A DNA stretch of 64,000 nt from Nitrososphaera sp. (GTDB lineage Archaea > Thermoproteota > Nitrososphaeria > Nitrososphaerales > Nitrosopumilaceae): the NCBI GenBank assembly GCA_039938575.1, contig JBDUUJ010000079.1:10067-74066 (forward strand), written 5' to 3'. Position 1 is the stretch's first letter. Each line of letters opens with the position of its first letter. Below the pieces are notes generated by a model. That model searched no databases and was not told the origin of the DNA. It was given only the letters and a program-made list of their open reading frames with translations. The position numbers and the translations under genes were made by a program. Positions 29,677 through 62,104 of this stretch are shown here, piece by piece.

Positions 29677-30027
29677 TTACGGCTTCAAAATTGTTGACAC
29701 GACGCTGTCTACTGCCTCATCAAACTTGGAGTCAATTGTGGACTTGAGCTTGTCCAGTTTTGCTGCCCCGTCGGATGCTATCTTTTTTGCCTGTTGCTCT
29801 GCCTTGGATTTAGTCTCCGCAATTATCGCCTCTGCCTCCTTTATGGCCATTTGTGTGACCTTTTCTTTGAGCAATTCGAGTTCTTTTTGGGCCTTGGAAT
29901 TGAGTGCTTTTTTCATGTCTGCTACCTTGGAGTTTAGCGAGTCAAGGTCATTTTCAAGTTCTGCTAGAGACTTGATGATTTTGCTTACCTTGGAGTCTGC
30001 TACGGCGGTTTGGGCTACTTCCTTCAT
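29677..30027 (-). CDS. Coiled-coil protein, A/V-ATPase subunit H/G-like
   Basis: All-helical, AIKEAEAIIAETKSKAEQQAKKI. Confidence 0.5.
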   Translation of the reverse strand: MKEVAQTAVADSKVSKIIKSLAELENDLDSLNSKVADMKKALNSKAQKELELLKEKVTQMAIKEAEAIIAETKSKAEQQAKKIASDGAAKLDKLKSTIDSKFDEAVDSVVSTILKP

Positions 30028-30061: not shown

Positions 30062-30403
30062 TCATTTGGTACTCAAAAGCAGGATCGCCCTTGCAAGATC
30101 GCCACCTGTTTCCTTTAGGGCGTTTGTAGCAACTTCAGGGGTGACATTTGCTTGCTGGCACACAAGCATTATGTCTTCTTCTGAAAAGACTGGTGTTTCC
30201 AGTTCTTTTTCTTCGTAGCTGTTTGCAATTACCTGAAAAATAGAATTATCTTTTGACCTCATTTCAGTGACTGCCGGTTTGGTGATTATGATCTCTTTTT
30301 TGTCGGTCTTGATTATTACCTCCTGGACATTTGTGACCTCTTTCATATCAAAGCCCATCCTGTCCAGCATTCGCCGCATTTCGCGGTTTCCGCCGCGCAT
30401 CAT
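30062..30403 (-). CDS. nac: Nascent polypeptide-associated complex protein
   Basis: EMRRMLDRMG, VQEVIIK, C-terminal UBA (GDLARAILLL). Confidence 0.93.
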   Translation of the reverse strand: MMRGGNREMRRMLDRMGFDMKEVTNVQEVIIKTDKKEIIITKPAVTEMRSKDNSIFQVIANSYEEKELETPVFSEEDIMLVCQQANVTPEVATNALKETGGDLARAILLLSTK

Positions 30404-30873
30404 GCCTGTTTTTCCACCACCGTAGGTTTTAAACTATGCCTGATTTTCACTGCTACGCCTCGTTTTAACGACATCATCATATCAGAATTCACCATGGCGC
30501 GCCCTACTGCGATCACCTTATCTTGGTACAAAACAGGCACATCAGCTCCAATTAGCACCCTTTTCCCTGCTCGGACTACATGTTTGCAAAAGACGGATTT
30601 TCCTTCCTCCACAAACGGCTTTGATTCATCGTTTATTTCGATGCAGTTCTCTCTGAATTTTTTACCCTTCAGCAAGATTTGTGCAAAATATGGAGTTATT
30701 GCAAGACCTCCATCTATTCTCAGTGTGCAAAGGAGTTTTTTGTCGCAGTACACTTCACGAATTCTGCCTGTTTTTTTAGAGAATGTGATCTCTATGTCTT
30801 TTGGAAGATATCTTGATGTGCCACTACCAAACAATGCGTCAAGGGTATGCCTTAGCTTCAGAATATGATCCAT
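30400..30873 (-). CDS. PUA-domain protein (archaeosine TGT/ArcS C-terminal-like)
   Basis: SKKTGRIREVY, GKSVFCKHV, IAVGRA, GVAVKIRH. Confidence 0.85.
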   Translation of the reverse strand: MDHILKLRHTLDALFGSGTSRYLPKDIEITFSKKTGRIREVYCDKKLLCTLRIDGGLAITPYFAQILLKGKKFRENCIEINDESKPFVEEGKSVFCKHVVRAGKRVLIGADVPVLYQDKVIAVGRAMVNSDMMMSLKRGVAVKIRHSLKPTVVEKQA

Positions 30874-54885: not shown

Positions 54886-57800
54886 TCATCCTGATGTGCA
54901 ACCAGAGAATCCGCACTCGATGCAGATGCTGCATCCTTCAACGAAGACGAGGTTGTTCTTGCATGATGGGCACAACAGCTCCTCGCTTACCTCTTCTTTG
55001 ATCTGGCTTTCCTTGAGTGGCTCCTCTGGTATCTTGAGTGCCAGCGCGTTGTTTACCTGTGTTCTGATGTACGGGTTTTTGATGTTCTTTGCAATAAAGT
55101 CGCGCAGGTATGTGCTTGGCTCCACCTCAAATGTCTTTTCTGCGTTTTCGCTTGTCATATGCAATACTTGGGTGTGTCTTGAGCCGTCACGGTACACAGT
55201 GATTCCTTTGAGCCCAAGCTCGTGAGCCAAAAGATATGCTGCTTTTACGTCGTCTGCTGAGACATCGTGTGGCATGTTGATCGTCTTTGCGATTGCATTT
55301 CCGATCCATTCTTGCCAGACTGCCTGCGCCATGAGGTGATCGGACCAGTGTATGTCCATTGCGGTGACAAAGATATTTTGGATCCATTCTGGGATTTCCG
55401 GCAGCCCCCTCACTGAGCCGTAGTTGTCAGCTATTTTGGCAAGAATCTCGTCAGAGTAGAGTCCATTTTCGCGCAGTACCTGTTCGAAGATCTTGTTTGT
55501 GTAAAAGAACCTTCCAACTGTTACGCGCTTTTCAAAGACCAGTGCAAATGTTGGTTCCATGCCGTTTGAGCAGTCGGCAATCATGGAAAGCGTTCCGGTT
55601 GGAGCAACGGTGGTTGTGAGTACGTTTCTGATGCCATTCTTTTTGATTTTGGCAATTAGGGCGTCCCAGTCGTAATAGTGCTCGCTTTTTGGCTTTTCAT
55701 AGTATCCTGCAATTGGTATCTTTCCTTCAGGATATTCGGTCTTTGGACACAGATCGAATTCGCCTCTTGAGCGAGCAAGAGCCACACTTTCTTCCATGGA
55801 GTAATATGTGAGTGCTTCTGCAAGCTTTGATTGGAACTCGTATCCTTCCTTGGAATTGTATGGGATTCTAAGCTTGTACAGCAGATCTGCCACTCCCATA
55901 ACACCTAGTCCTATTCTTCTTGATTCTTTTGATGCCTTGTCGATTTCCGGAACCGGATAATTATTCATGTCGATTACGTTGTCCAAGAATCGTGTTGTCT
56001 TTCGTATTGTCTCTTCATATCTTTGCCAGTCAAACTCGTATTGGCCGTCAGCCTTCCTTTTCACAAGGTTTGCCAAGTTGATCGAGCCAAGGTTGCATGA
56101 CTCGTATGGATACAAGCTTTGTTCTCCACAGTTGTGAACTACAATCCCATTTGCCACGAAGGCATTGATGCCTGGTACTTGTGCATCATACACAACCTCC
56201 GTACCGTCTTCGATTAGTTCAGAAAACACTGCTGTTTGTTTCTGCAAGACGATGTAGTTTTTGCCCTCTGTTTCAGTATGTGCCAAAATGATGCTATCGC
56301 CAGCTTTGAGCTGTCCAGCTTCTTTCCACTCAAACGACAGTCCGTTTTGTTTTACTGCCACTTTGTGATCCTTAGTTAATCTAAGTTCGTATCCTTCTTT
56401 GGTTCTTAATTTGTATACTGGTTTTACTCCGGTGACAAAGAAGCCATCTGATCGCCACACAGTACCGTTTACAACTGCTTCAAAAGGAGTTCCGATTAGA
56501 TCTCTGACCATTCTTGGCCCTTCTGATGTTGCAATCCAGGTATCAGCTGTGACGCATGGGTTGGTGGCCCTCAGTGGCATGCCCCTTGCCTTTGCAAATA
56601 CGTTGTACTTGTTGATGTTATCAAAGAAGATCAGTCCCGGCTCTGCGCTCTTCCAAGCTGACAGTGCAATAATGTCGATGAGTTGGTGGGCGTTGACCTC
56701 TTTTACTGGAGATCTGTCGCGCGGGCTGCGAAGGGTGTACTTGCCGTCTGGGCTGTCAACCAATGCGGCCCAAAAGTCCTCCCAGATTCCCACACTTACG
56801 TTAAAGTTCTCCAGAATTCCTGGCTGCGTCTTGTTTGTGATGAATTTTTCAATGTCGGGGTGCCAGACCTCCAGGATTCCCATGTTTGCACCTCTTCGCT
56901 TGCCTCCCTGCTTGACCACCTCGGTTACGGTATTTATGATGTTCATAAACGAGACAGGTCCTGATGCCACGCCCGATGTCGAGGCCACAATGTCTCCTTC
57001 GTGCCTCAGATCTGAGTAATTGATTCCGACTCCTCCGCCTGACTTGAAGATTAGTGCTGCGTCTGATGTAGACTTCATGATGTCGTTCATATCGTCTGGC
57101 ATTCCAAGCACGAAGCAGGCCGACAGCTGTCCTAGTCGCGCCCCTGCGTTCATCATGGTAGGAGAGTTTGGCAAAAAGTCCTGCTCGGTCATCAAAGTAT
57201 AGTATTCGTTGATTCTTTCCGCATAGCTATCAAACTTTTTAGCTGCAATGAGTGTCAGAACCTCTTTGAAGCTCTTCTTCATCTGGCCACGCTTTGCCAA
57301 GTAGATGTAGTGGTTGATCAAGCCGCGGAAGTGGTATTTGTTAAGATAGTACTGGCCTATCTTGAACTTGTAATCAAAGTCGTCAAGCTTTGCAAGATAC
57401 TTTCTTGCTTCCTCGATATCCTGTGGGATGTTTCCTTCTTTTGAGAAGAGTTCAGAGTCATACAGGAGGTCACCTATTCCTACTAGGATCGCTACCCTCT
57501 CGAACATCTGGCTTGGGCTCTCAATTATCTCGTTTTTGTTGTTGCGTAGAAGGTACCTTGATGCTAGAACCCGCAGGCAGTTGAGGTCAAATGATTTTGC
57601 TACAGGGTCAAGTGATTTTGTATTTAGAACCTTCATTTTGTCTTCACGGATTTTGCGGCGCTCGTGTCTGTACAAAATGTAAGACTTGGCAATTTCGCCG
57701 TAGCCCATCTCGATCAGAGTTGATTCCACCATATCCTGCACGTCTTCGACACTTGGCGGACTGGAAGCTGAAAATCCCTGCTGGATTAGCTTCGATAAAA

Positions 57801-57966
57801 CTCCTCCAGTCAGCTCCTCTGCTATTTTGCGGTCTGGCTGGCCGTTTGCCACCAGAGCCTTGTAGATCGCATTAGTGATCTTTTCTTTGTTAAATGCTGT
57901 AATCCGACCGTCTCTTTTCTTAACGTCGACGATCGAACTTTCTATTTGAGAAAAATCTGTTGTCAT
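54886..57966 (-). CDS. nrdJ: Adenosylcobalamin-dependent ribonucleotide reductase (class II) with ATP-cone, intein-containing
   Basis: ATP-cone VKKRDG; PNSPT, QLSACF, GGKRRGANM, TNP/CGE, ESCNLGS, VAPTGT; ATG 57966 with upstream GAGGG. Confidence 0.96.
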   Translation of the reverse strand: MTTDFSQIESSIVDVKKRDGRITAFNKEKITNAIYKALVANGQPDRKIAEELTGGVLSKLIQQGFSASSPPSVEDVQDMVESTLIEMGYGEIAKSYILYRHERRKIREDKMKVLNTKSLDPVAKSFDLNCLRVLASRYLLRNNKNEIIESPSQMFERVAILVGIGDLLYDSELFSKEGNIPQDIEEARKYLAKLDDFDYKFKIGQYYLNKYHFRGLINHYIYLAKRGQMKKSFKEVLTLIAAKKFDSYAERINEYYTLMTEQDFLPNSPTMMNAGARLGQLSACFVLGMPDDMNDIMKSTSDAALIFKSGGGVGINYSDLRHEGDIVASTSGVASGPVSFMNIINTVTEVVKQGGKRRGANMGILEVWHPDIEKFITNKTQPGILENFNVSVGIWEDFWAALVDSPDGKYTLRSPRDRSPVKEVNAHQLIDIIALSAWKSAEPGLIFFDNINKYNVFAKARGMPLRATNPCVTADTWIATSEGPRMVRDLIGTPFEAVVNGTVWRSDGFFVTGVKPVYKLRTKEGYELRLTKDHKVAVKQNGLSFEWKEAGQLKAGDSIILAHTETEGKNYIVLQKQTAVFSELIEDGTEVVYDAQVPGINAFVANGIVVHNCGEQSLYPYESCNLGSINLANLVKRKADGQYEFDWQRYEETIRKTTRFLDNVIDMNNYPVPEIDKASKESRRIGLGVMGVADLLYKLRIPYNSKEGYEFQSKLAEALTYYSMEESVALARSRGEFDLCPKTEYPEGKIPIAGYYEKPKSEHYYDWDALIAKIKKNGIRNVLTTTVAPTGTLSMIADCSNGMEPTFALVFEKRVTVGRFFYTNKIFEQVLRENGLYSDEILAKIADNYGSVRGLPEIPEWIQNIFVTAMDIHWSDHLMAQAVWQEWIGNAIAKTINMPHDVSADDVKAAYLLAHELGLKGITVYRDGSRHTQVLHMTSENAEKTFEVEPSTYLRDFIAKNIKNPYIRTQVNNALALKIPEEPLKESQIKEEVSEELLCPSCKNNLVFVEGCSICIECGFSGCTSG
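56131..56556 (-). mobile_element. Mini-intein (142 aa, no homing endonuclease) in NrdJ
   Basis: Starts CVTADTWIAT, block B LRLTKDH, block F VYDAQV, ends VVHN followed by C+1; removal restores ..ATNP-CGEQ.. Confidence 0.95.
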
Positions 57967-58179
57967 AATGTCTCCCCTCACTAGGTAAAACCATATTGGA
58001 TATAACCCTGACTGCCAAAGATTTCAGATTTTAGCTCAACAATGTTTACACCATTCCAAGAAATTTTGGAAAGGTTGTTCCTAAACCCACATACGAATTT
58101 AGTTAATTTCAAAGTGGATCCATTCTCTGATACTGATTAATTTTTATCCCACAAAAATAGATGTTGCGAATTTCGATTT

Positions 58180-60282
58180 TTAGCTAAGTATGAACGGCGA
58201 TTTACATGCAGGGCATTTGTCAAAGAGTTTTTCATCCTTGAAGCCGCAGTTGCCGCAGATCGGCACCTCTTTGCTTGGCCTAAATGAGCCTACCAGATCG
58301 CCGGCTTTCTCTATTGCCTTCCTGATATCGTCTGTTTTGGAGTCCTTCTCAAAGCGGAGTCTGACTAAAAGCCCGCCGTTGAGGAGTTTGGCTACCTTGT
58401 TTGTCTCGGCAACCTTTTCTGCCTTGGGGCTCAAAGAGTCGATCTCAGACGATAAAATGACTACACCTTCCGAATAACTTTCCCCTTCGAGGGATTTTAG
58501 AACCGACATTTTACCATATTTTTCTCCGTCAAGGGAGCCAAACCTTGCTGTTCCGTCGCTCTCAGTCATGCAGACTACCACTGTGTCGCCCATCTCTTTG
58601 CCCTTCTTTTCTGCCACATCTACTGCAGTTTGGATCACTTTGTGGATCACGTCACGGCCTTCCTTGTCGTCGTTGTATCCAAGTATGCTAAAGACTGCTT
58701 CTTTGAGGCCTACCAAATTTACTACAAGGCAGATTGAGCTTCGTTGCATGTACTGCGTGTTTGCCGCCAGGACCGGGTTTAGTCCCCTTCTTGTGAGATC
58801 GGAGATGTCTTTTTTGCGCAACGACATTGCTGCAAGGGCAGGCTTCATCAGCAATGCAAGTCTGGCCCTAAAATAAGTCTCGTCCTTGTTTGACTCAAAC
58901 GCAAGTCTTGGCAGGTTGATCGTAAGTGACTGCAAGTTGATCGATGACGTACTGTTTTTTCCTTTGATCCTCAAGACGCCACTGTACGAAGACTCGTCCT
59001 TTGAGAAGAGGACTTTGCCTCCAAGCGAAATTATCTCTGCAACTGTCTGAGACACATCTGCGATCTTACCTGATGCGTAATCGATTATGATGCCCACTTG
59101 GGGCGCCGGAGTCATCTTGACATAAGTCTTGTATGCGTTCAGTATTGCTTGCACCACCTTTGGTTCTGCGCTAAGCTGGAGCCTAAATGAGACTAGAGTT
59201 GGCTCTTTTGTATACTTGGATGATACAGAGGAGGTGGCAAATGCACCCACTAGTTTTTCTTCAAGCTCAGAGAGGTTCTTTGCATACTTTGAGCAAAGTT
59301 GTACGAGGCCGTCAAGAACCACTTCCTTTGAGGCTTCCTTTGAGACAAGCGAGATCATCATAGAAAGAGATGACATGAGGTTGTCAAGTGTCTTTACTGT
59401 TGGAATTCTTGTGACGCCTAGATATTTGCCTTTGAGATCAAGTCCGTCCTCGATGAGCTCCTTTATGTTAAAGAAGATCGTGTCTGGCAAAAGCGACCAT
59501 ATGCCTGGATTTGAGATGTGAATGTCGCCTGAGAGGTGCGAGTCTGCCACATCCTTTGGAAGGGTATTTAAAAGGAGGTTTTCTGCAAATACTGCCTGGC
59601 CTGCCTTAAAGAAGAGGCCCTGTGAACCATTATCAATATTGTCTACGTTTGTGAGCATCTCTTGGACGTCAAATACTGGCATCCCGAGCCTGGCAAGTTT
59701 GTTTCTGTACTCTTCGTGGCCGTGCTCAAGGAGTACAGAGTTTACCATTTCTCGGATAAGTGAGCCTGTAAGGTAGGTGGTCTGGTATTTGTAGATGCGG
59801 TTTTCCACCTCTTCTGTGATTTTTTGGGCAAGTTCCAGAGGAAGGCTGCCTTCTCGAACCAGTGACTGGATTATCTTGTGCGAGTTGAACTCTTCGATGG
59901 ATTCGTGCGAGGTTCTCACATACATCTTGCCGCTTTCGATGATTGAACGCTCCTCGATCTGCCTTGCAAGACTCAGTACTAGCTTGCCAAGATTTGTGAT
60001 TGTGTACCTGCGCTCCGATTTGTTTAGTGCAACAAGTGATTGTCTGAGAAGCTTTCTTAGGTGGTACGCAAATTTCCCACTTTCTTTTTTTGACTTGAAG
60101 CCTGCAAGTGATTTAAGCTCGGAATAAGTAAGTGGCCCCTTTGAGTTGAGGATCCGCAAAATGTCGATCCTGTTGGGGCTTGCCATTACGGAGAAGATCA
60201 TCCTGACACGCTTTGATGTGGATTGTAAAATGCCACCGCTCTTCTTGGGATCTACTGTCCCAGTGGCCACTTCGATGCTCAT
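58180..60282 (-). CDS. ArsR-HTH + ATP-cone + NrdD-like (class III RNR-derived) protein, apparently catalytically inactive
   Basis: HTH (NRIDILRIL..TYSEL..FAYHLRKL), ATP-cone, HLSGDIHI, TINLPRLA, NLVGLKEA, C-terminal CxxC..CxxC; no RxxGY glycyl motif. Confidence 0.85.
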   Translation of the reverse strand: MSIEVATGTVDPKKSGGILQSTSKRVRMIFSVMASPNRIDILRILNSKGPLTYSELKSLAGFKSKKESGKFAYHLRKLLRQSLVALNKSERRYTITNLGKLVLSLARQIEERSIIESGKMYVRTSHESIEEFNSHKIIQSLVREGSLPLELAQKITEEVENRIYKYQTTYLTGSLIREMVNSVLLEHGHEEYRNKLARLGMPVFDVQEMLTNVDNIDNGSQGLFFKAGQAVFAENLLLNTLPKDVADSHLSGDIHISNPGIWSLLPDTIFFNIKELIEDGLDLKGKYLGVTRIPTVKTLDNLMSSLSMMISLVSKEASKEVVLDGLVQLCSKYAKNLSELEEKLVGAFATSSVSSKYTKEPTLVSFRLQLSAEPKVVQAILNAYKTYVKMTPAPQVGIIIDYASGKIADVSQTVAEIISLGGKVLFSKDESSYSGVLRIKGKNSTSSINLQSLTINLPRLAFESNKDETYFRARLALLMKPALAAMSLRKKDISDLTRRGLNPVLAANTQYMQRSSICLVVNLVGLKEAVFSILGYNDDKEGRDVIHKVIQTAVDVAEKKGKEMGDTVVVCMTESDGTARFGSLDGEKYGKMSVLKSLEGESYSEGVVILSSEIDSLSPKAEKVAETNKVAKLLNGGLLVRLRFEKDSKTDDIRKAIEKAGDLVGSFRPSKEVPICGNCGFKDEKLFDKCPACKSPFILS

Positions 60283-60345
60283 TGGTATGCCTAAAGATCA
60301 GTAGTAAATAAGATTTGTGCTGTAATTTGCAACAACCTTTTTTGA

Positions 60346-60507
60346 TCAGTTCTTGTTTACTTCGACTGAAAATTCTGATGTCGAAAGTGTTTGTCCACAT
60401 GAAGGACATTTGTTGTTGTAGTGTTTCATTACATCTTTGATCGACTTGAGCATCTTCATGTTGGAGATCTTTGCTCCACACTTTCCGCAAATTACTTCAA
60501 CAGACAA
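60346..60507 (-). CDS. Zn-ribbon micro-protein, 53 aa (not in ORF track)
   Basis: MSVEVICGKCGAKIS..NNKCPSCGQTL; TTG start. Confidence 0.7.
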   Translation of the reverse strand: MSVEVICGKCGAKISNMKMLKSIKDVMKHYNNKCPSCGQTLSTSEFSVEVNKN

Positions 60508-60579: not shown

Positions 60580-60945
60580 TTACTGTTTTTCCAAAAGTAT
60601 GCCGCGGTCGTCGTATCCTATTATCTTGATCTTTGAGCCCACGGGCAATTGGTCTGGCGAGCTGATCCCGCCAAGGAATCCGGATATTCTAAGATCGTAT
60701 CCGTCCAGATTCATTACCACCCAGGCGTAAGGCGTGTACTTTTCAAAGCCAGCAGGTGGTACCGTGATTATGGTATACGTGGCAACCGTGCCTATTCCCT
60801 CAAGAAATTTGTTCTCAAAGCCCTTGTTGCCGCAGTTTTGACAAAAGTATACTGTTGCAAGATGGAGGTGGCCGCACTTTGTGCATTTTTTCGTGAGGAC
60901 TCTACCAGATTTGAGGGCATCTATGAATTCTTGCTTAATTGACAA
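60580..60945 (-). CDS. DUF35 family Zn-ribbon/OB-fold protein (thiolase partner)
   Basis: KCTKCG..FCQNCG, GTVATYTII, PYAWVV. Confidence 0.92.
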   Translation of the reverse strand: MSIKQEFIDALKSGRVLTKKCTKCGHLHLATVYFCQNCGNKGFENKFLEGIGTVATYTIITVPPAGFEKYTPYAWVVMNLDGYDLRISGFLGGISSPDQLPVGSKIKIIGYDDRGILLEKQ

Positions 60946-60949
60946 GGTC

Positions 60950-62104
60950 TTACACGCTTTTGAAGATGTGGACTGCGCAGCTTGCCCCCGTTGCGCCAAA
61001 ATTGTGGGTAAGGCCTATGTGGGCGTCTTTGACTGTCCTTTCTCCTGCCTTTCCTGTTAACTGCTCAAAAACCTCAACTACCTGTCCTACGCCGGTTGCT
61101 CCGATCGGGTGGCCTTTTGCCTTTAGGCCGCCAGATGGATTTATTGGGATGTCACCATTGCGTGCTGTCCTTCCTTCTCTTACTGCCTGTACTCCTTTAC
61201 CTTTTTCAAAGAACCCTAGGTCTTCTGTATCCACTATCTCTGCTATTGTAAAGCAGTCGTGGACCTCAGCAAAGTCAATGTCTTTTGGAGTTATGCCGGC
61301 CATCTTGTACGCTGCTTGCGCTGCAATCTTTGTACTTGGGATAGTCGTCATATGATCCCTGCCTTGCAGGGTTGCCGGTGATCCTCCCCTTCCTGATCCA
61401 ATAACTTCGATGTAGTTTTTAGAGTGAGCCTTTGCGAATTTTTCGTTACAAAGAATGACTGCACTTGCACCGTCTGAAAACGGGCAGCAGTCGTAAAGCT
61501 TGAGTGGGCTTGCTACAACCGCAGACTTCATCACATCGTCCACTGTGATCTTTTTTCTGAGATGTGCTTTTGGGTTGAGCAGACCGTTGTCGTGGTTCTT
61601 TACTGCGACAAGAGCTAAATCTTCCTCAGTTGCTTTGAATTCAGTCATATAAGCTCGTGCCATTGATGCAAAGAGTCCGGGGAACGATGCACCTGCACCA
61701 CCCTCATAGAAGAAATCAGAACAGTAAGAAAAGTAAGTCGTGGTCCATTCAGTGCCAGTATGTGTTACTTTTTCCACACCCGTGACCAAAACTGCGTCGT
61801 AAAATCCTGCTGCCACATTTGCAAATGCCTCTCTGAATGATACTGAGCCGCTTCCACATGCAGACTCGATTGACAGTGAAGGTTTTTCTGGAATGCCAAG
61901 ATTGCTCATGATTACTGGTCCTAGGTGGACTTGCTTGTCTGCTATCCCAAAGACGTTTGAGATGTAGCCTGCCTGGATCTCTTTTGGATCGATTCCTGCA
62001 CTTTCGATTGCCCCGACTGATGCTTCAATAGTGATATCTGTGATGCTGTCTTGTAATTTTCCATATTTGGTGCTGCCTGCACCAAGAACGCAAACCTTTT
62101 CCAC
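60950..62104 (-). CDS. Archaeal thiolase (acetyl-CoA acetyltransferase)
   Basis: ESACGSG, KNHDNG, SDGASA, AEVHDCF, NPSGGLKAKGHPIGATG. Confidence 0.95.
   Translation of the reverse strand: MEKVCVLGAGSTKYGKLQDSITDITIEASVGAIESAGIDPKEIQAGYISNVFGIADKQVHLGPVIMSNLGIPEKPSLSIESACGSGSVSFREAFANVAAGFYDAVLVTGVEKVTHTGTEWTTTYFSYCSDFFYEGGAGASFPGLFASMARAYMTEFKATEEDLALVAVKNHDNGLLNPKAHLRKKITVDDVMKSAVVASPLKLYDCCPFSDGASAVILCNEKFAKAHSKNYIEVIGSGRGGSPATLQGRDHMTTIPSTKIAAQAAYKMAGITPKDIDFAEVHDCFTIAEIVDTEDLGFFEKGKGVQAVREGRTARNGDIPINPSGGLKAKGHPIGATGVGQVVEVFEQLTGKAGERTVKDAHIGLTHNFGATGASCAVHIFKSV

Follow-up and report, generated by a model that had tools for sequence, protein, structure and literature searches.

The stretch of DNA analysed here, referred to as the window, comprises 64,000 nucleotides of contig JBDUUJ010000079.1 (assembly GCA_039938575.1), from a member of the Nitrosopumilaceae deposited as Nitrososphaera sp. 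On its reverse strand, an open reading frame (ORF) at 58180..60282 (-) begins with ATG and runs unbroken for 700 codons, and its 700-residue product joins a winged helix-turn-helix (wHTH), an ATP-cone, a barrel of the kind found in NrdD, the anaerobic (class III) type of ribonucleotide reductase (RNR), and a C-terminal zinc ribbon. Homologues of this fusion protein at 96% identity belong to Candidatus Nitrosotenuis, which makes the source of the window an ammonia-oxidising archaeon. Directly downstream, on the same strand, follows nrdJ (54886..57966 (-)), which encodes a class II (B12-dependent) RNR. A preliminary description of the locus, made from the sequence, had taken the fusion protein for a dead reductase repurposed as a transcription factor that reads nucleotide pools.

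The N-terminal domain, an ArsR/SmtB-type wHTH at residues 25-115 (59938..60210 (-)), is matched by the Pfam models HTH_20 (residues 33-85; 32.7 bits, cut-off 27) and DUF7347 (residues 29-103; 40.8 bits, cut-off 27.6). It scores 23.5 on the NCBIfam ArsR/SmtB model, below that model's cut-off of 55, and the family profile meets structures of the ArsR-family proteins HlyU and NolR at an E value of about 3e-3. An AlphaFold2 model built from 51 diverse relatives (pLDDT 89.4, pTM 0.80) places helices at residues 24-32, 36-48, 53-59 and 65-80 and strands at residues 84-87 and 92-95, the latter forming the beta-hairpin wing. The recognition helix includes GKFAYHLRKL (residues 69-78) and bears the H-L-[RK]-x-L signature of the ArsR/SmtB family. 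After the winged helix, the model continues with a long helix (residues 97-116), a low-confidence, flexible hinge (residues 111-120), the cone, and then the large barrel. The cone, of a 'VRTS' type according to column counts, spans residues 118-200 (59683..59929 (-)) and matches the Pfam ATP-cone model at residues 120-192 with 35.9 bits against a cut-off of 25.8.

The NrdD-type alpha/beta barrel core, devoid of catalytic residues, occupies residues 201-665 (58288..59682 (-)), and the Cys4 zinc ribbon (C676, C679, C690, and C693; 58183..58287 (-)) completes the protein. As modelled, the body is a ten-stranded barrel of NrdD fold with a central finger loop. The 36 top Foldseek matches of this model in the PDB are all class III RNRs (best E 7e-21, TM 0.5-0.67), drawn from the NrdD enzymes of S. 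thermophilus, T. maritima, P. copri, and phage T4, with class I enzymes and pyruvate formate-lyase relatives scoring far below them. The family profile meets NrdD chains at E 2e-38 to 6e-32, and the Pfam NRDD model matches the barrel with 86.9 bits, while the NCBIfam NrdD equivalog TIGR02487 gives 78.7 bits, which is below its threshold of 326.35. Pfam, AlphaFold2, and Foldseek agree on the architecture that the preliminary description had read from the translation, an ArsR-type wHTH and an ATP-cone fused to an NrdD-like barrel and a zinc ribbon.

Loss of the catalytic apparatus and origin of the family

An alignment with NrdD, which the preliminary description had put forward as a check on the loss of catalysis, was made from 51 family members, 21-62% identical to the window protein, together with E. 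coli NrdD and a complete bathyarchaeal NrdD; its catalytic columns were cross-checked by profile alignments to solved NrdD chains. The column of the thiyl-radical cysteine (C384 in E. coli, C290 in T4) holds V436 in the window protein and cysteine in none of the 51 members. The finger loop reads Y433-S-G-V-L-R438, with G435-V436 aligned to the Gly-Cys of the E. coli MGCR motif and the glycine kept, as had been noticed when YSGVLR was compared with the GCR of NrdD. The column of the second active-site cysteine (C175 in E. coli, C79 in T4, C125 in T. maritima) holds T268 in the window protein and is also without cysteine in all 51 members. At the C-terminus the window protein stops at residue 700, seven residues past the last zinc cysteine (C693), and thus has no glycyl-radical domain. 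The RxxGY motif is absent from the entire protein, again as described, and the chain ends before the column of the glycyl-radical glycine (G681 in E. coli), at which 2 of the 51 members have glycine.

The substrate site has fared no better, and here the preliminary description, which held that a substrate nucleotide site was retained, has to be corrected. In NrdD, HxHD is a triphosphate-binding motif and NxN forms a flap over the substrate (PMC11226230, PMC4493059). The HxHD position of the window protein is occupied by H255-I-S-N258, and across the family the second histidine is not one of the six commonest residues at its column, which together cover 41 of the 51 members. The NxN columns are gaps in the window protein and in all 51 members. 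The site is degenerate because HxHD reads HISN and the flap is deleted. What the family has kept is the asparagine of the NLPR motif (N456; 51 of 51 members), the four zinc cysteines, whose columns are likewise invariant in all 51, the strand DxHxSGxIH, and the cone.

An enzyme that has remained a ribonucleotide reductase by way of an unconventional radical route would account for the preserved barrel, zinc ribbon, and NLPR asparagine. It also has a precedent of sorts in the NrdD of T. maritima, in which a hydrophobic residue at the loop tip is by itself no proof of inactivity: that enzyme has isoleucine at its finger-loop tip and its true SCCR motif in the loop just upstream, and it keeps the glycyl-radical domain, an HYHD motif, and Cys125 (PMC4493059). 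All four of these features are missing from the window protein. A displaced SCCR of the T. maritima kind was considered as the source of the catalytic cysteine and rejected, since the stretch between residues 331 and 517 of the window protein is free of cysteine and therefore contains no such hidden motif. With the C-terminal domain and the flap gone, HISN in place of HxHD, an equivalog score of 78.7 bits against a cut-off of 326, and a complete class II RNR encoded next door, continued reductase activity is scarcely credible. The radical-SAM (S-adenosylmethionine) motif CxxxCxxC that would mark an NrdG activase occurs in no ORF of at least 80 residues in the window, which agrees with the earlier statement that no nrdG lies nearby. 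Ammonia-oxidising archaea, moreover, live aerobically and would have no use for a glycyl-radical enzyme, which is sensitive to oxygen. The fusion protein is almost certainly a dead NrdD joined to a wHTH, and no enzyme.

Lost catalytic residues and a lost C-terminal domain are also what a decaying pseudogene, the relic of a former anaerobic RNR, would display. Such a reading is refuted by the selection analysis. Measured against orthologues, the gene as a whole has a dN/dS of about 0.035, the winged helix and cone have values of 0-0.008, and the barrel stands at about 0.05, so that each domain is constrained and strong purifying selection acts on all parts of the protein. The reading frame is intact over its 700 codons, and the family has been kept in hundreds of species across phyla. 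Clustering at 50% identity yields 1168 representatives, 181 of them with E below 1e-30, and relatives are present in at least 597 GTDB species genomes. Member names include Nitrosopumilaceae, Nitrososphaeraceae, Conexivisphaerales, Aigarchaeota/Caldarchaeum, Bathyarchaeota, and the Asgard lineages Odinarchaeia and Baldrarchaeia; the family extends beyond the ammonia oxidisers into TACK and Asgard archaea.

Conservation across the family is greatest in the recognition helix (GKFAYHL), in the cone, and in the initial portion of the barrel. The cone, the most conserved of the protein's parts, has about 25 positions conserved at 90% or more, including the invariant V122 and R123. The complete archaeal NrdDs that adjoin family members bear the same type of cone. 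In two catalytically complete archaeal NrdDs (locus L085, 9358-11454 (+); locus L170, 8285-10513 (-)), which are among the closest NrdDs to the fusion protein and have a CCR finger loop, the cone begins VRT[ST] and not with the canonical KRDG. Any binding of ATP/dATP by a VRT[ST] cone would bear directly on the fusion protein.

The first of these NrdDs lies on a bathyarchaeal contig directly downstream of a family member. It scores 514.5 bits on TIGR02487 and has every catalytic element in place (a QCCR finger loop, HIHD, a NENAN flap, and RVTGY), and its cone begins VRTS, as in the fusion family. The window protein is 37% identical to it over cone and linker (E 2e-27). Between this enzyme and the thaumarchaeal proteins stand bathyarchaeal family members of 740-800 residues, in which the radical-loop segment after the zinc ribbon is still present with its glycine replaced. 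Scores on the NrdD model fall in the same order, from 514 bits for the real NrdD through 186-274 for the long bathyarchaeal forms to 46-79 for the thaumarchaeal forms. The thaumarchaeal forms stop at the zinc ribbon, and the aigarchaeal and Asgard forms are without the ribbon as well. Because forms and scores make up a graded series, the comparison points to an origin in which an archaeal nrdD was duplicated, gained a winged helix, and lost its catalytic parts stepwise.

Linkage to reductase genes and the nrdJ promoter

The preliminary description placed the fusion gene immediately upstream of the real RNR, and this assignment is secure: the product of nrdJ scores 715 bits on TIGR02504 (NrdJ_Z; cut-off 400) and contains the Pfam domains Ribonuc_red_lgC, ATP-cone, here with the canonical KRDG, and Intein_splicing. 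nrdJ probably starts at the ATG at 57966, before which a conserved GGGGAG stands, though a GTG at 57981 also opens the ORF. A mini-intein occupies residues 515-617, counted on the ORF 54886-57981 (-), at the NPC/GEQ active-site motif. In nrdJ orthologues the intein is absent or longer, and related loci have nrdJ genes of about 2.65, 3.09, or 3.75 kb.

Conservation of this linkage among ammonia-oxidising archaea had been suggested as a further check, and the outcome was positive. All 75 Nitrosopumilaceae loci with enough downstream DNA have nrdJ about 200 nt downstream of the fusion gene on the same strand, and 57 of 63 Nitrososphaeraceae loci have nrdJ downstream with different genes on the other flanks. 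More distant lineages repeat the association in other forms. In Conexivisphaerales nrdJ adjoins the fusion gene convergently; of two Bathyarchaeota, one has a class II and the other a class III RNR downstream of it; and in a Baldrarchaeon a complete class III RNR together with a glutaredoxin gene adjoins it, again convergently. An RNR gene thus stands beside the fusion gene in 6 of 11 sampled lineages. No argument for a functional link is stronger than this recurrence of RNR genes of two classes and in both orientations, although the recurrence is not universal.

An alignment of 68 Nitrosopumilaceae spacers between the fusion gene and nrdJ served as a phylogenetic footprint. Three blocks are about 90% conserved in it, a TATA box, the GGGGAG already mentioned, and an element termed here the GTGT box, and the rest is conserved at roughly 50%. 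The TATA box, TTATAT at 58000..58005 (-), lies in the block GTTATATCC, which is at least 90% conserved over the 68 spacers, and marks a separate nrdJ promoter. The GTGT box is an imperfect inverted repeat, GTGTAAACATTGTTGA, at 58036..58051 (-), with the family form GTGTnAA-N5-TTGA (aligned block GGTGTnAA-N5-TTGA), and is centred about 41 nt upstream of the TATA box. Allowing one mismatch, 68 of 76 Nitrosopumilaceae spacers contain it, in every case 68-83 nt ahead of the nrdJ start, and one Conexivisphaerales contig has a perfect TTGTCAA-N6-TTGACAA upstream of nrdJ that matches it. The GTGT box is a candidate operator, putatively that of the fusion protein, and a site upstream of the TATA box is compatible with activation or recruitment as well as with repression. 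It is kept as a candidate only, since it is not enriched in Nitrososphaeraceae, was found in no other lineage, and is absent from the promoter of the fusion gene itself. Autoregulation through the GTGT box was accordingly considered and rejected.

Beside the GTGT box, 2 nt further upstream (the gap being 58052-58053), is a second palindrome, TTCCAA-N6-TTGGAA at 58054..58071 (-). At the same position 41 of 76 spacers, those of Nitrosopumilus, have a different palindrome, TATGA-N3-TCATA. The preservation of palindromy through a change of sequence suggests a co-evolving binding site or a hairpin. Other searches of the spacers returned nothing: a k-mer search seeded by the window spacer found no motif, Nitrosotenuis departing from the family consensus; enumeration of palindromes in Nitrososphaeraceae spacers found none enriched; scans of bathyarchaeal loci and of L087-L089 found no match to the GTGT box; no riboswitch or other known RNA matched in Rfam at E up to 1; and near nrdJ there was no match within 3 mismatches to the NrdR-box consensus ACACWATATATWGTGT. 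GATC-containing boxes, CCGATCATTTT, TTTGATCAG, and GCGATCATCG, recur in Nitrosopumilus spacers (L021-L063).

Proposed function

Considered together, these observations favour, at a little better than even odds (about 55%), a nucleotide-responsive regulator of the neighbouring RNR gene, built from a duplicated class III RNR. That the protein is a DNA-binding regulator of some kind is probable. In the mechanism we propose, the dead barrel would serve as a dimer scaffold, as the barrel does in NrdD, and would present two winged helices, which could engage an inverted repeat located upstream of the promoter of nrdJ. The ATP-cone would bind ATP/dATP or dNTPs (deoxynucleoside triphosphates), and a relic of the specificity site at the dimer interface possibly might do so too. 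Binding of a nucleotide would shift the position of cone and wHTH and with it DNA binding or the oligomeric state, so that nrdJ transcription would follow the dNTP/ATP pool, as with bacterial NrdR, under which RNR transcription tracks the nucleotide pool (PMC9110341). NrdR is reported to be rare in archaea (PMC9110341), and the role of an archaeal RNR regulator is therefore not known to be filled.

Several points weigh against this proposal. DNA binding, nucleotide binding, and control of nrdJ are alike inferred. The cone lacks the canonical Lys-Arg pair of phosphate ligands and has T124-S125 at their positions, so that nucleotide binding cannot be read from homology alone. Adjacency to nrdJ in Nitrosopumilaceae is weak evidence by itself, because the whole neighbourhood there is syntenic (thiolase, DUF35, nrdJ, and a glycosidase-like gene), and 5 of the 11 sampled lineages, as well as one subgroup of Nitrososphaeraceae, have no adjoining RNR gene. 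The GTGT box is not enriched in 81 Nitrososphaeraceae loci, with 2 exact hits against 2.2 expected, even though the recognition helix of the Nitrososphaeraceae proteins is identical to that of the window protein, and it is present in just 1 of 78 promoter regions of the fusion gene. The window has a further exact match at 29685-29700, within the end of a coding region; considered as a second site, upstream of a protein without a Pfam match, it was judged to be due to chance.

Some of the same facts would be expected if the protein were a DNA-binding regulator with a ligand-sensing dead NrdD whose regulon is not centred on nrdJ and might instead comprise the synthesis of pyrimidines or nucleotides, or a broader growth programme; adjacency to nrdJ in the ammonia oxidisers would then be mostly inherited gene order. 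Where no RNR gene adjoins it, as in five lineages, the fusion gene has as neighbours those for NAC, PUA, HflX, and HTH_3 proteins, pyrB, or thiolase and DUF35. Among all lineages, pyrB (OTCace) lies by the fusion gene in Baldrarchaeia, Aigarchaeota, and Nitrososphaeraceae, thiolase and DUF35 flank it in Nitrosopumilaceae and Odinarchaeia, and four lineages have the NAC, PUA, HflX, and HTH_3 genes on its flanks, to which the missing candidate operator of Nitrososphaeraceae may be added. Two RNR classes nevertheless recur beside the gene across phylum-level distances with differing flanks and orientations, no other gene family recurs there as often, and the sensor module is itself derived from an RNR, which together make a regulon of this wider kind unlikely.

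A role at the protein level, in which the dead NrdD body would, for example, buffer or sense nucleotides or modulate another enzyme as its partner, with the wHTH engaged in protein contacts or in non-specific nucleic-acid binding, is more doubtful still. Winged helices can serve protein-protein contacts, conservation is highest in the cone and the early part of the barrel, and no operator is established across lineages. Each of these would suit such a role, but the HTH fits DNA-binding models of the ArsR/SmtB type and bears the H-L-[RK]-x-L signature, a direct partner is hard to reconcile with adjacency to two unrelated-looking RNR classes, and a conserved inverted repeat stands at a fixed distance from the nrdJ start.

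The nucleotide-responsive regulator of the adjacent RNR gene can be carried one step further, more tentatively and at slightly less than even odds, to an ancient dNTP-supply regulator of TACK and Asgard archaea that arose by duplication of a class III RNR, lost the radical chemistry, gained a winged helix, reads the nucleotide pool by way of allosteric sites inherited from the enzyme (the ATP-cone and possibly the specificity site), sets transcription of whichever class of RNR is in use, and is an independent counterpart of NrdR. If so, the bathyarchaeal forms with a radical domain that lacks its glycine would be evolutionary intermediates, and the family would represent a new kind of pseudoenzyme with graded intermediates still existing in nature. 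For the control of RNR transcription in archaea, the family offers a testable candidate in ammonia oxidisers, Bathyarchaeia, Aigarchaeota, and Asgard archaea.

Comparison with known systems sets the protein apart from each of them. It shares with NrdD the fold, the cone type, the cone-to-barrel linker RLGMPVxDV, the DAHxSGxIH strand, the NLPR motif, and the Cys4 zinc ribbon. Unlike NrdD it has no thiyl-radical cysteine, second cysteine, glycyl-radical domain, or NxN flap, has a degenerate HxHD, carries an extra N-terminal winged helix, scores far under the equivalog cut-off, and occurs in an aerobe, without an activase gene close by in the 64-kb window. With NrdR, the bacterial repressor of RNR operons composed of a zinc ribbon and an ATP-cone, it shares the fusion of a DNA-binding domain to an ATP-cone, a frequent location near RNR genes whose expression should follow ATP/dATP, and, as proposed here, a nucleotide-dependent change in DNA binding. 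It differs from NrdR in that its DNA-binding domain is an ArsR-type wHTH and not an N-terminal zinc ribbon, its only zinc ribbon being C-terminal and of NrdD origin, and in its 470-residue dead RNR body, a cone without the Lys-Arg pair, an independent origin, and the lack of any NrdR-box-like sequence near nrdJ.

The N-terminal 90 residues resemble ArsR/SmtB regulators such as HlyU and NolR in matching HTH_20, HTH_5, and ArsR models, in the recognition-helix signature, and in the beta-hairpin wing. Unlike those regulators, the fusion protein is without their metal-sensing sites, and its sensor would be a 600-residue RNR-derived module and not the HTH dimer. Enzyme folds have been put to comparable use in other one-component regulators: MocR/GabR regulators consist of an aminotransferase fold fused to an HTH, and repressors of the ROK family have a sugar-kinase fold. 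In both, as is proposed for the fusion protein, a fold with lost or reduced catalysis acts as a ligand-sensing and dimerising module, the difference being that the donor here is a radical enzyme of nucleotide metabolism. We know of no earlier enzyme-derived regulator based on an RNR, and to our knowledge this would be the first case of an RNR turned into a non-catalytic sensor. No published description of the family was found in the full-text literature open to search outside subscription journals, RNR phylogeny and RNRdb papers among it.

Public records name most members 'anaerobic ribonucleoside-triphosphate reductase' and a few 'ArsR family transcriptional regulator'. The former name is wrong as a functional statement, as the preliminary description had anticipated of automatic annotation, the equivalog score being 78.7 against a cut-off of 326. 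The protein is an NrdD homologue by descent that fails every catalytic test and should not be filed as an RNR. In hundreds of genomes the label wrongly implies an anaerobic route to dNTPs in aerobic ammonia oxidisers, and it can mislead metabolic reconstructions and marker surveys based on RNRs.

Flanking sequences and neighbouring genes

The fusion gene's own promoter region (60283..60345 (-)) contains, in an alignment of 78 upstream regions, the conserved block GTCAcAAaTCTTATTTA, which resembles a BRE (B recognition element) and TATA box and lies about 30-35 nt before the ATG. The window also has two copies of CTGATC upstream of the gene. Just after its stop, at window positions 58163-58178 (-), is the conserved block TGAAATTCGTAAAT, in which the palindrome CGAA-A-TTCG is followed by a run of T; it may be the transcription terminator of the gene. 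A scan for bacterial-type terminators found nothing.

Several neighbouring genes recur around the family. The thiolase and DUF35 (OB-fold/zinc-ribbon) pair, at 60580-62104 (-) in the window, adjoins the fusion gene in Nitrosopumilaceae and Odinarchaeia (L172/L173) and lies beyond nrdJ in Nitrososphaeraceae (L082), and this order by the fusion gene is kept between TACK and Asgard archaea. A pyrB-like aspartate/ornithine carbamoyltransferase gene is beside or near the fusion gene in Baldrarchaeia (L170, together with pyrI), Aigarchaeota (L174), and Nitrososphaeraceae (L082), and its presence in three distant lineages hints that pyrimidine synthesis may be part of the same regulon. A conserved block of genes for NAC, PUA/TGT_C2, an HflX-type GTPase, and HTH_3 flanks the fusion gene in four lineages (L083, L088, L089, and L174). 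The PUA/TGT_C2 gene of the window lies at 30400-30873 (-), about 28 kb from the fusion gene, from which it appears that this older arrangement has been broken up in Nitrosotenuis.

A further ORF, absent from the list of ORFs, was found at 60346-60507 (-). It has 53 codons and a TTG start, encodes a small zinc-ribbon protein (CGKCG...CPSCG), and ends 63 nt upstream of the ATG of the fusion gene. In tblastn searches 80 of 81 sequences (the window and 80 Nitrosopumilaceae loci) had it in the corresponding position, at 66-98% identity.

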